Shown: positions 1-3,048, counted from the stretch's first letter. The stretch is DNA of 32,000 bases from Candidatus Pelagibacter sp. HTCC7211 (GCF_000155895.1 NZ_DS995298.1:1170001-1202000); one strand, 5' to 3'. The notes: generated by a model not told the origin, from the letters alone. Numbers and translations are program-made.

Positions 1-618
1 CGTCCTATCTCCATTTAAAACTTTTTTAACCTCTTCAAAATTTTCATTCCCTGGTTCTCTTATGTTTGCACAATATTCAAAAATCCCACCATTTTCAGGT
101 TTCTGGATCATTAAACTTAAAGTAAATTCGCAGCTATCAAAATGCCATGGAAGAATTCCTTCAGGTTTCATTACATTATATGCATGGCAAGCCAATGGGT
201 CGGCCCATCTGTATATTGGAGAAACACCTAGGCAAGCAGAAACAAATTTCAAAAGCTCTTCAGTTTCATAAAGGTATTTCATTTCTGAATTTTTTTGAAA
301 ACAGTCAGAATTTAGATATCCATTATATCTTTCCATAAAATTTCTCTTAGGATGTTCTTTAGGTAAAGATGGATCATCTTTAGCATATAAGTATGCATTG
401 ATTTTTTCCTTAGACATATAAACTTCATCAAGCTGCTTTTCTAATTCTAAATTCATTGTCTCTAAAGATTTAGGTAAAATAAAATTTGGTATGGTAGAAC
501 AGCTATCTTGGTCTAGTTCTTTTTTACACTTCTCAATTAATCTTTTAATAATTGGAGAATTTAAATCATGAATAGGATATTTTTCTAAATCAACAATAGT
601 TTTAAGTCTATCGTTCAT
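1..618 (-). CDS. Fe(II)/2-oxoglutarate oxygenase-like protein, partial (206 N-terminal codons; C-terminus lies beyond the window edge)
   Basis: Absent from the ORF track because it runs off the window. My translation of the minus strand from the ATG at 618-616 is open to position 1: MNDRLKTIVDLEKYPIHDLNSPIIKRLIEKCKK...GILPWHFDSCEFTLSLMIQKPENGGIFEY. WHFD is a plausible HxD iron-binding motif. It starts 4 nt after the stop of the upstream gene on the same strand. Confidence 0.55.
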   Translation of the reverse strand, partial: MNDRLKTIVDLEKYPIHDLNSPIIKRLIEKCKKELDQDSCSTIPNFILPKSLETMNLELEKQLDEVYMSKEKINAYLYAKDDPSLPKEHPKRNFMERYNGYLNSDCFQKNSEMKYLYETEELLKFVSACLGVSPIYRWADPLACHAYNVMKPEGILPWHFDSCEFTLSLMIQKPENGGIFEYCANIREPGNENFEEVKKVLNGDRT

Positions 619-622
619 TGCT

Positions 623-997
623 TTATTTTAGTTTGCCTTCTTCTCTCATTTTTGCTCTAATTTTTGTAGCTGAGATTTCTTGAATTTCTTTTGATAGTTC
701 AATTTCTTCAATTTTATAACCAACTCCTCTACCGTAACAAATATTAGTAATATTCGGAACCATCATAATTTTAAATTGTCCTTCAAATTCTGGATTTAAC
801 CTATCTTCAATATTTTTTTTTACAGTTTCAAAATCAAATGGATTATCATCCACTCCTTGAACGTCTCTAATTTGAATACACACTTGACCAGTTTTTTTTA
901 TAATTTCTTTAAACAATGTGTAATGGCCATCATGAAATGGTTGCCACCTTCCTAACATTTGAGCTGTTGGTTTTTTATTATCCCATTGGTATGACAT
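623..997 (-). CDS. Small HxGH-type nucleotidyltransferase (cytidylyl/adenylyltransferase superfamily, archaeal NadM-like signature)
   Basis: GRWQPFHDGH matches the (G)RxQPFHxGH signature of NadM-type adenylyltransferases. ISATKIR matches the C-terminal ISSTxxR motif of the superfamily. At 124 aa it is unusually short. Confidence 0.7.
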   Translation of the reverse strand: MSYQWDNKKPTAQMLGRWQPFHDGHYTLFKEIIKKTGQVCIQIRDVQGVDDNPFDFETVKKNIEDRLNPEFEGQFKIMMVPNITNICYGRGVGYKIEEIELSKEIQEISATKIRAKMREEGKLK

Positions 998-1008
998 GAT
1001 TTTACCCC

Positions 1009-1422
1009 TTATTTTAAATTAATATCTTCAAATATTTTTGGTGCCCAATTTTTAGCATCTTGTGTAGTAACATGAAAGTCAAACTTATCTGGTTTGATAA
1101 ACATTTTGTTAGTATCATCAAATCTTCCTTCTTTAATAGTATCTACCCATATAACATAATCAGCAGGAAACAAACTTCTCGCTTCTGGTGTTGGACATAT
1201 AAAATCTGCTACAACATCAAATCCTTGTTCTTTTAATTTTAGAGCAAAATCTGACATTCTTTTAGCTTGCCGCTTTCTTCCTTCTTCAGAAAAATCCCAA
1301 TCATTTGCCTCTTTTCTAACTTCATCAGCATTCAATCTCTTAGCATTTAACATTGGTGCTAATTCTCCTGCCAAAGTTGTTTTTCCTGAACCAGGCAAAC
1401 CCATTATTAAAATTATTTTCAT
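1009..1422 (-). CDS. P-loop kinase, adenylylsulfate (APS) kinase-like but divergent
   Basis: Walker A GLPGSGKTT. LNADEVR...FSEEGRKRQAKR...DFICP parallels the LDGDxxR...FSxxDRxENxRR...FISP layout of CysC, with several substitutions. Its start shares 1 nt (TAATG) with the upstream M24 gene stop. Confidence 0.6.
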   Translation of the reverse strand: MKIILIMGLPGSGKTTLAGELAPMLNAKRLNADEVRKEANDWDFSEEGRKRQAKRMSDFALKLKEQGFDVVADFICPTPEARSLFPADYVIWVDTIKEGRFDDTNKMFIKPDKFDFHVTTQDAKNWAPKIFEDINLK

Positions 1423-2657
1423 TAAATATCTTCTAACGGATGATGGGACATTAGTTCAAGTCCATTTTGACCCACTAAATATTGTTGCTCAAGTTTTACG
1501 CCCTCTTTACCACCAACTTTTCCAATATAGCTTTCAACAGTAATAGTCATGTTTTTTTGAAATATACCGCCTTTGTCTCCACCATCTGTTGGATATCTTA
1601 TTGATGGCCACTCATCGCACAAACCTATTCCGTGAACCATCACAGAATATCTATTGCCATAATATTCTTTAGGAAGTTTCCAAGATTTTTCTATAAACTC
1701 TTTAAAAGTCGTACCATCTTTTATTAAACTTGAATTATGGTTAATTTGATTAACTGCCATTGAATAAAGATTTTTTTGATTATCATTAAAAATATTTCCG
1801 CATACAAATGTTCTCGATATATCAGCACAATATCCATAAGGTCCTACCATATCAGTATCAAATGAAACAATTTCTCCCTGTTGTATTATCTTATTACTAC
1901 TTTCTTGCATCCAAGGATTTGTTCTCTCCCCTGATGATAAAATTCTACACTCAATCCATTCACCGCCATTTTCTATATTTGTTTTGTGAAGTATCGACCA
2001 TAGTTCATCCTCAGTAATACCTGCTTTGAGTTCTTTTCTCATTTTAGTTACACCGATTTCTGCAACTTCAATAGCTGCCTTCATACATTTTAACTCTTCT
2101 GGTGATTTAATAACTCTTGCCTGTTCTAATATTGATTTTGCATCTATTACTTCTATTCCACTTTTATTTAATTCTGTAACTGCTGGTCCATTTAAAACAT
2201 CGATTGCAATTTTTTTTGATTTAAAATATTTTTGTGATAATTCATTAACTTCTGAAATCCATTTTTTTAATTGTGAATTGGCTTGATCTCCATGAGCAAA
2301 ATAATCCCAGGTTATTGCTGGTCTAATTTCTTCAATTAAATTTAAGTGCTCAGACAATTTTTCACAGTTAAAATACTCATAAAGAATTGTTGGTCCTTCC
2401 ACTGGTACAAAACAATACCTAGAAAGATTATGCATATTAAAAACACTCATATTTACAGTGTCTAATGCATACCGAACATTGACTGGGTCAAATAAAATAC
2501 ATGCTTCTAAATTATTTTTAATCAATTCTTTTTTAACTCTCTCAAGTCGATAACTTCTTAATTTTTCAAAGTTAATCTCATCCTCTCTTATTCTTTTTTT
2601 TGTAAGGAAGTTTGTATATAATTTGTATTCTGGATTTATTTTTCTACTAAATTTCAT
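1422..2657 (-). CDS. M24-family (pita-bread fold) metallohydrolase; Xaa-Pro dipeptidase / ectoine hydrolase / DddP / creatinase-like
   Basis: Motifs FDTDMVGPYGYCADISRTF, HGIGLCDEWP, TVESYIG and VKLEQQ line up by eye with the D, D, H, E, E metal ligands of M24 enzymes. I trimmed the start to the ATG at 2657 (MKFSRKINPEY...), because the track start at 2705 would overlap the upstream SET gene by 29 nt. Confidence 0.75.
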   Translation of the reverse strand: MKFSRKINPEYKLYTNFLTKKRIREDEINFEKLRSYRLERVKKELIKNNLEACILFDPVNVRYALDTVNMSVFNMHNLSRYCFVPVEGPTILYEYFNCEKLSEHLNLIEEIRPAITWDYFAHGDQANSQLKKWISEVNELSQKYFKSKKIAIDVLNGPAVTELNKSGIEVIDAKSILEQARVIKSPEELKCMKAAIEVAEIGVTKMRKELKAGITEDELWSILHKTNIENGGEWIECRILSSGERTNPWMQESSNKIIQQGEIVSFDTDMVGPYGYCADISRTFVCGNIFNDNQKNLYSMAVNQINHNSSLIKDGTTFKEFIEKSWKLPKEYYGNRYSVMVHGIGLCDEWPSIRYPTDGGDKGGIFQKNMTITVESYIGKVGGKEGVKLEQQYLVGQNGLELMSHHPLEDI

Positions 2658-2676
2658 AAGATTGATAAATAATATT

Positions 2677-3048
2677 TCAAAATTGATAAAAAGTATATTG
2701 TGCAACTAATTCCTGACCTGGATCAATATCCTTTAGTGAAACAAGGAATAAATACTTGAAATTTTTTTCATTTTTTTTGCTAATTGTTGATAGAGAATTT
2801 AAATCTAGAGTTTTGCCAAATTCGTATCCTGGAAATATATCCATTCCCATTTTAATTATATTGGGATTTTCTGAGTGATTATAAAAACCACCTAAGGGCG
2901 TTCTAATGTAACTGTTAGGAAATGTTTCATGTTTAACGTGTGTAACACCTATAAAAGAGTCTTTGTTAATCTTTATCTCTGAAAATAAACCTAAACCTTC
3001 AATTGCTGAATTTCTAATTGTTAATTGATTTGGTAAAGGTCTATACAT
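2677..3048 (-). CDS. Minimal SET-domain protein (putative SAM-dependent protein-lysine methyltransferase)
   Basis: IEGLGLF near the N-terminus, YNHSENPN (the NHSxxPN SET motif) and GQELVAQY (the ELxxxY post-SET-like motif). 123 aa, about the size of minimal viral SET proteins. Confidence 0.65.
   Translation of the reverse strand: MYRPLPNQLTIRNSAIEGLGLFSEIKINKDSFIGVTHVKHETFPNSYIRTPLGGFYNHSENPNIIKMGMDIFPGYEFGKTLDLNSLSTISKKNEKNFKYLFLVSLKDIDPGQELVAQYTFYQF

Follow-up and report, generated by a model that had tools for sequence, protein, structure and literature searches.

Three small genes at one end of a 32,000-nucleotide stretch of the Candidatus Pelagibacter sp. HTCC7211 genome (GCF_000155895.1, NZ_DS995298.1) raise the question of what a P-loop kinase and a nucleotidyltransferase (NT), encoded next to one another, might make together. 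This stretch, hereafter the window, covers positions 1,170,001-1,202,000 of a single-contig genome of 1.457 Mb and approximately 30% GC. A preliminary description had placed the two genes in a trio with a partially visible 2-oxoglutarate (2OG) oxygenase, and had likened them to the enzyme pairs of 3'-phosphoadenosine 5'-phosphosulfate (PAPS) synthesis, coenzyme A (CoA) synthesis and NadR-type NAD metabolism. Our analysis indicates that conservation extends to the pair of kinase and NT but not to the trio. On balance, we favor the interpretation that this pair is a minimal PAPS synthase, in which the NT substitutes for ATP sulfurylase.

All three genes lie on the minus strand. The start codon (ATG) of the kinase gene (P0003, 1009-1422) overlaps the stop codon (TAA) of the M24 gene upstream of it (TAATG). 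The kinase gene encodes a 137-aa, lid-less P-loop kinase resembling adenosine 5'-phosphosulfate (APS) kinase and is a proposed APS 3'-kinase gene. A spacer of 11 nt (ggggtaaaatc) separates it from the NT gene (P0002, 623-997), which encodes a minimal HIGH-motif nucleotidyltransferase of 124 aa, the proposed sulfate adenylyltransferase. After a further 4 nt comes the gene for P0001, a HalD/BesD-like Fe(II)/2OG oxygenase; the window covers the N-terminal 206 of its 283 aa (1-618). The open reading frames (ORFs), both spacers and the motifs quoted previously (GLPGSGKTT, FSEEGRKRQAKR, GRWQPFHDGH, ISATKIR and WHFD) were all found again, confirming that three small, tightly spaced genes are present.

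The arrangement was compared across 30 loci from two SAR11 families, 80 further Pelagibacteraceae loci and 78 viral loci. The close relatives in the homologue and contig scans were all Pelagibacteraceae, so dominated by near-identical sequences that no distant context emerged; the set of 80 was used for the oxygenase statistics. Both the kinase and the NT gene were held by 28 of the 30 SAR11 loci and were adjacent in 27 of these 28, while in the 80 further loci the kinase gene lay upstream of the NT gene in 65 of 74, with a crotonase gene downstream. The two are also found as a single polypeptide, in phrog_10255, in Sanovirus and Salvovirus phages and in metagenomic proteins of 255-270 aa, which number in the dozens; 29 proteins that were aligned are such fusions. 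With one exception, the fusions seen had the order kinase-then-NT. Thus, the earlier proposal that the kinase and NT act as one unit, with a logic of adenylylation plus phosphorylation, is supported by adjacency, one insertion excepted, and by many fusions. Several variants of the arrangement were seen. In G034 (L033:428-4961), the kinase and NT genes are split by 4.6 kb through the insertion of two genes for autotransporters of 775 and 721 aa (Pfam Autotransporter beta-domain), and the spacing in G017 (L034) is apparently the same. In one phage group (L189:1310-1528; L174, L184, L188, L191 and L197), a 72-aa DUF2061 membrane protein is encoded between the two, and the contig that carries the fusion P0252, on which most genes are unannotated and one encodes a DUF5907 protein, is probably of phage origin; the contigs encoding P0216 and P0205 were too short to show any context.

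The oxygenase behaves differently. Extension into the genome beyond the window, as the preliminary description had suggested, recovered the complete 283-aa protein (L001:11767-12618, minus strand). It scored 43.4 bits against Pfam HalD (cut-off, 26), and in an alignment to the HalD structure 7u6h its WHFD and TLHRV stood opposite WHWG and TLHHV of the metal-binding core, similar to the BesD/HalD amino-acid halogenases and hydroxylases. In this family HxD is the signature of hydroxylases and HxG that of halogenases. The oxygenase has HxD (WHFD) where HalD has HxG (WHWG) and is therefore of the hydroxylase type. Of 75 Pelagibacteraceae loci, only 18 had its gene next after the NT gene. It was present in 12 of 61 relatives and was not found in any of 24 sister-family genomes, and in G004, G005 and G026 the pair and the oxygenase gene were on separate contigs. 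A conserved third member is thus not supported; rather, the gene of an accessory, HalD-like hydroxylase has been inserted beside the pair in some strains only.

These same counts bear on the idea of a true three-enzyme pathway, in which a 2OG oxygenase would modify the product of the pair or prepare its substrate. The spacer of only 4 nt in the window strain appears to favor such a pathway, but intergenic spacers in SAR11 are short throughout, and the closeness of the NT and oxygenase genes is accordingly of little weight. In many phage cassettes, 2OG oxygenases of other families are placed after the pair, and phage DLP_6 has one close to its fusion. However, the phage oxygenases are not homologous to the SAR11 oxygenase, which had no BLAST match in the viral ORF set, and we regard the three-enzyme pathway as improbable. 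Twelve viral loci (L146-L151, L158, L160, L162, L163, L170 and L181) share one conserved cassette, which encodes, in order, a sulfotransferase, the kinase, the NT, two to three 2OG-Fe(II) oxygenases (Oxy_3, Oxy_5), and proteins of approximately 212 and 618 aa with no Pfam match. Given these unrelated oxygenases, a looser association may exist, and the shared viral cassette may represent a pathway of modification by hydroxylation and then sulfation.

Evidence on the reaction of the pair begins with the kinase. It scored 42 bits against Pfam APS_kinase (PF01583; cut-off, 21.1), with a match to profile positions 4-90 of 152 only, and 35 bits against the NCBIfam APS kinase equivalog, below its cut-off of 138.7. 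Its best sequence matches in the PDB were APS kinases (e.g., 2yvu at 5.9e-7). The AlphaFold2 (AF2) model (pLDDT 96.8) likewise found APS kinases as its top Foldseek matches (2ofw, 7yq1, 4rfv and 1m7g; TMq 0.80-0.86), with gluconate kinase also high in the ranking. The best matches were 2ofw, the APS-kinase domain of PAPSS1, on which the model superposes, and 7yq1 (TMq 0.86 each). The kinase keeps the P-loop (GLPGSGKT). Its R36 aligns with the R of the APS kinase motif DGDxxR, and its F44 and R49 align with F and R of FSxxDR; the residues of these motifs, together with those of the longer FSxxDRxEN, we take to act at the substrate site. The kinase NADEVR stands opposite DGDxxR, with the first D replaced by N and the second D and the R kept, and DFSEEGRKRQ stands opposite FSxxDRxEN, with F and R kept and N replaced by Q. 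In addition, approximately 17 residues of the lid, KGLYxKARxGxIxxFTG, are missing relative to the fusion P0216, the CysC of G014 and the CysC of the HTCC7211 genome itself. By profile, sequence and fold, the protein is most likely a lid-less APS kinase, and phosphorylation of APS is its predicted activity. A complex prediction for the kinase and NT gave a score of 0.00 and was counted neither way.

Assignment of the NT is more difficult. It carries the NadM-type motifs GRWQPFHDGH (HIGH) and ISATKIR, and its family also has its own near-invariant motif, YGR(D/G)VGY. Against Pfam CTP_transf_like it scored 20.1 bits, just below the cut-off of 21. Matches to nicotinamide mononucleotide adenylyltransferase (NMNAT) models were confined to residues 14-55 and fell far below the cut-offs (PRK01153, 28.4 bits against 127; TIGR01527, 24.6 against 181), and the phosphopantetheine adenylyltransferase (PPAT) model PRK00777, with a cut-off of 104 bits, gave a score of 17. 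With the AF2 model (pLDDT 92.4), Foldseek returned no match in the PDB at E<=1e-3. Alignment with VIA-align gave Z 11.5 for PPAT, covering 113 of 124 residues, and Z 10.6 for NMNAT; the matches listed included no chain of an ATP sulfurylase. Nor did the NT match PF01747 (Sat) in the Pfam search, and its paralogue in G014 reached 17.3 bits, below the cut-off of 24.3. The NT may have a sulfurylase-like function, but it is not a member of the Sat family.

Relatives of the NT formed 658 clusters at E<=1e-10 (50% identity clustering), and its family had more than 550 matches on viral contigs. In 400 other Pseudomonadota genomes drawn, no true family member was found outside SAR11; only partial matches (profile positions 8-97) within reading frames of 332-418 aa were seen.

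The NadM-type motifs raise the possibility of NadR-like NAD salvage, in which the kinase would phosphorylate nicotinamide riboside and the NT would adenylylate nicotinamide mononucleotide (NMN) to NAD+, as in NadR or phage NARP3. The NT shares GRxQPFHxGH, ISxTxxR and a Rossmann-like HIGH fold with NadM-type NMNATs (1f9a, 1ej2) and with NadR, its best family matches are NadM-type NMNATs (PRK01153, 1.1e-6; 1f9a, 7.8e-4), and the Pseudomonadota frames of 332-418 aa, though not annotated, look NadR- or NadM-type by length and NCBIfam matches. In some phages, moreover, a NADAR gene lies ahead of the fusion. On the other hand, the NT scores below the NMNAT family cut-offs and is approximately 45 residues shorter than archaeal NMNATs, from which it also differs by its invariant YGR(D/G)VGY. 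Its residues 55-90 span residues 48-107 of the 1f9a chain, so that approximately 24 residues are deleted between the NPF and (S/V)(G/P)N motifs of archaeal NMNAT. The deleted central segment is presumably the nicotinamide-binding pocket, and this loss suggests a smaller pocket, fit for a very small acceptor. The kinase is APS-kinase-like rather than NadR-type (TIGR01526, 16 bits against a cut-off of 341), and the contexts of the NT point to sulfur, not NAD. NadR has the order NMNAT-then-kinase and usually occurs alongside PnuC. The pair has the opposite order, PnuC was not found in the HTCC7211 genome, which encodes NadD (122 bits), and NAD salvage would leave the sulfotransferase and Sat contexts described below unexplained. 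We consider it unlikely. NAD reconstitution via NadR is documented in phages (PMC13464706, PMC9503650), but NARP3 consists of PnuC and a true NadR (PMC13464706), an architecture unlike that of the pair.

A CoA-type logic, with a PPAT-like NT and a 3'-kinase resembling dephospho-CoA kinase, draws on the structural comparison. PPATs (CoaD) give the best superposition, in fold only, and like the NT they are very small single-domain HIGH nucleotidyltransferases; some close NT relatives carry the JGI name phosphopantetheine adenylyltransferase. Dephospho-CoA kinase and APS kinase both phosphorylate the adenosine 3'-OH, which also counts for this reading. However, identity between the NT and PPATs is 10-18%, the NT scores below the PPAT family cut-off, and the kinase matches APS kinase and not CoaE. 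No recurring CoA-related neighbours were seen, and elsewhere in the genome a CoaD-like CTP_transf_like protein of 167 aa (79 bits) and CoaE (76.7 bits) are already encoded. This makes the CoA-type logic highly improbable. Since the genome holds canonical enzymes for both NAD and CoA, neither was retained as the best explanation; of the three analogies drawn initially, the evidence favors PAPS.

Several gene contexts point to sulfate. The fusion P0216 joins the same NT family to an APS kinase with the full KGLYxKARxGxIxxFTG lid. Within the genus of HTCC7211, G014 has a canonical CysC gene (106.7 bits) overlapping that of a 117-aa NT with 47% identity to the NT of the window, in a cassette (L030:4009-6638) that holds TauE and, in order, CysC, the mini NT and a pyruvate-kinase-barrel (PK-barrel) protein. 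A cassette of G051 (L232:3543-8118) encodes an APS-kinase-like protein, a canonical Sat, a PK-barrel protein, a sulfotransferase and TauE. The PK-barrel proteins of the two cassettes are homologous (30% identity, 2e-13), as are the TauE proteins (33% identity, 5e-26), which places the mini NT and a true Sat in the same slot. TauE denotes a TauE-family permease.

Sulfotransferase genes recur near the pair. Among the 78 viral loci, 26 had a sulfotransferase gene a few genes upstream of the NT gene, and in 18 of these 26 it lay two genes before it, i.e., directly before the kinase gene where the pair is split. In phage phiRSL1, the kinase gene is clustered with one annotated as 'sulfotransferase-like protein'. 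Among 27 genomes of the sister family, the mini kinase was present in 19 and CysNC in four, with both in none, and all four CysNC genomes were without the NT. The HTCC7211 genome itself encodes a canonical CysC and has sulfotransferase genes, three in number, but neither a PF01747 (Sat) match nor CysD was found in it. Sulfotransferases were present in 54 of 61 relatives and Sat in one; the search for CysD covered the HTCC7211 genome only, and that for Sat also the 61 relatives.

The same contexts bear on a further alternative, in which the architecture and chemistry are retained but the acceptor is a different small anion or an adenylylated metabolite (selenate, phosphate, a phosphonate or sulfonate, or a signalling nucleotide), giving a 3'-phospho-adenylyl-X other than PAPS. 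The departures of the kinase from canonical APS kinases, in the first D of DGD, in the N of ENxRR and in the lost lid, would be consistent with this alternative. Furthermore, many phage loci have no nearby sulfotransferase gene and belong to replication modules that also contain genes for GT8 or FkbM methyltransferases, and the presence of a NADAR gene next to the fusion in Sano-type phages is left unexplained. Full-length APS kinase partners, sulfotransferase adjacency and the Sat slot exchange indicate sulfate instead. Another acceptor is therefore distinctly less probable than sulfate, although it is the alternative that we would take most seriously.

If the pair is a PAPS synthase, the NT would convert ATP and sulfate to APS and pyrophosphate (PPi), using a cut-down NMNAT/PPAT-like fold, and the lid-less kinase would phosphorylate the 3'-OH of APS to form PAPS, thereby drawing the unfavourable first step forward. 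PAPS would then supply the sulfotransferases of the cell. Alternatively, the NT might work in reverse, forming ATP and sulfate from APS and PPi, on APS derived from AprBA and sulfite. We infer sulfate as the acceptor, as well as the order and direction of the steps, and sulfurylase catalysis from gene context only. The proposed sequence of sulfate adenylylation followed by APS 3'-phosphorylation would be that of PAPSS1/2, of the Aquifex Sat-APS kinase (2gks) and of CysN/CysC fusions. In animal PAPSS proteins, the kinase is N-terminal and the adenylyltransferase C-terminal, and the fused pair shares this domain order. In contrast to known PAPS synthases, its NT half of 115-125 aa is NMNAT/PPAT-like and belongs neither to Sat (PF01747) nor to the CysD/CysN GTPase system. 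The fused pair is also far smaller, at approximately 260 aa compared with approximately 620 aa for PAPSS, and its kinase is without the lid segment.

Several observations weigh against a PAPS synthase, the probability of which we place just above even. The nearest relatives of the NT are NMNATs by sequence and PPAT or NMNAT by structure, not ATP sulfurylases, and hhalign of the NT against a real Sat aligned only the region of the HIGH motif (33 columns), with a probability of 15%. The exclusivity counts from the sister family are small and come from related genomes. In Sano- and Salvo-type phages, the NADAR gene directly before the fusion suggests NAD or ADP-ribose chemistry. This gene (COG3236) overlaps the start of the fusion in Sanovirus/Salvovirus (L002:5559-6735 and L003:5559-6735), a link to ADP-ribose or riboflavin-intermediate chemistry that synthesis of PAPS leaves unexplained. 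The canonical CysC of the HTCC7211 genome makes the mini kinase look redundant there. Finally, some SAR11 genomes have sulfotransferases and neither the pair nor any APS kinase (e.g., G008 and G010, 92% completeness), so the pair is not the sole conceivable source of PAPS, and AprBA could provide APS from sulfite without a sulfurylase.

In the HTCC7211 genome, aprBA lies 54 kb from the pair; the nearness of the pair to aprBA in the sister family is convergent and constitutes weak evidence. The aprBA operon (L126:2439-7791, approximately 1.112-1.118 Mb) is flanked by genes for a 132-aa HIT-family protein, a TauE exporter, and ORFs of 264 and 116 aa with no Pfam match. A possible role for the HIT protein is cleavage of APS, in place of Sat, during sulfite oxidation. 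The canonical CysC, of 169 aa, is encoded at the end of the genome (L124:2393-7685; 1,451,393-1,456,685) in a cluster with a 395-aa ORF with no Pfam match, a PPDK_N/PEP-utilizer protein, a GATase and a PIG-L deacetylase. Just over the genome start from this cluster, at position 789-908, there is a weak sulfotransferase-like match.

On the downstream side of the three genes, a crotonase gene abuts the oxygenase stop codon with no spacer, and is followed by genes for an SBP56 methanethiol-oxidase, a ferredoxin and a CoA-binding protein. Upstream, the best NCBIfam match of the M24 protein (window 1422-2705) is the dimethylsulfoniopropionate (DMSP) lyase DddP, at 340.7 bits. Because this score is well below the equivalog cut-off of 600 bits, we consider the protein to be DddP-like and not DddP. 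A 123-aa SET-domain protein (window 2677-3048) matches the phage family phrog_28741 at 9.4e-19 and may be of phage origin.

Our literature search found no paper on the kinase-NT pair. In a virome survey (PMC8066274), cysC and nadM are listed separately from one another among the auxiliary genes, and we conjecture that these entries may be the pair. If the pair is a PAPS synthase, virome genes that have perhaps been counted apart as 'cysC' and 'nadM' would be re-annotated, and the module, carried by phages of marine and fresh waters, would serve to supply the sulfotransferases that these phages encode. It appears to us evenly balanced whether the NT represents a third, unrecognised class of ATP sulfurylase, descended from an NMNAT/PPAT-like ancestor, which together with the lid-less kinase would form the smallest PAPS synthase proposed and would be the means by which SAR11 makes PAPS. 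If so, a reaction central to sulfur metabolism would gain a new enzyme class. SAR11 bacteria are among the most abundant in the sea, are the textbook example of organisms that do not assimilate sulfate, and have long been described as being without sulfate activation. Sulfotransferases are nevertheless encoded in 54 of the 61 SAR11 genomes sampled, yet 60 of the 61 are without a Sat-type ATP sulfurylase. The kinase-NT pair, if it acts as proposed, would explain the source of the sulfate donor in SAR11.

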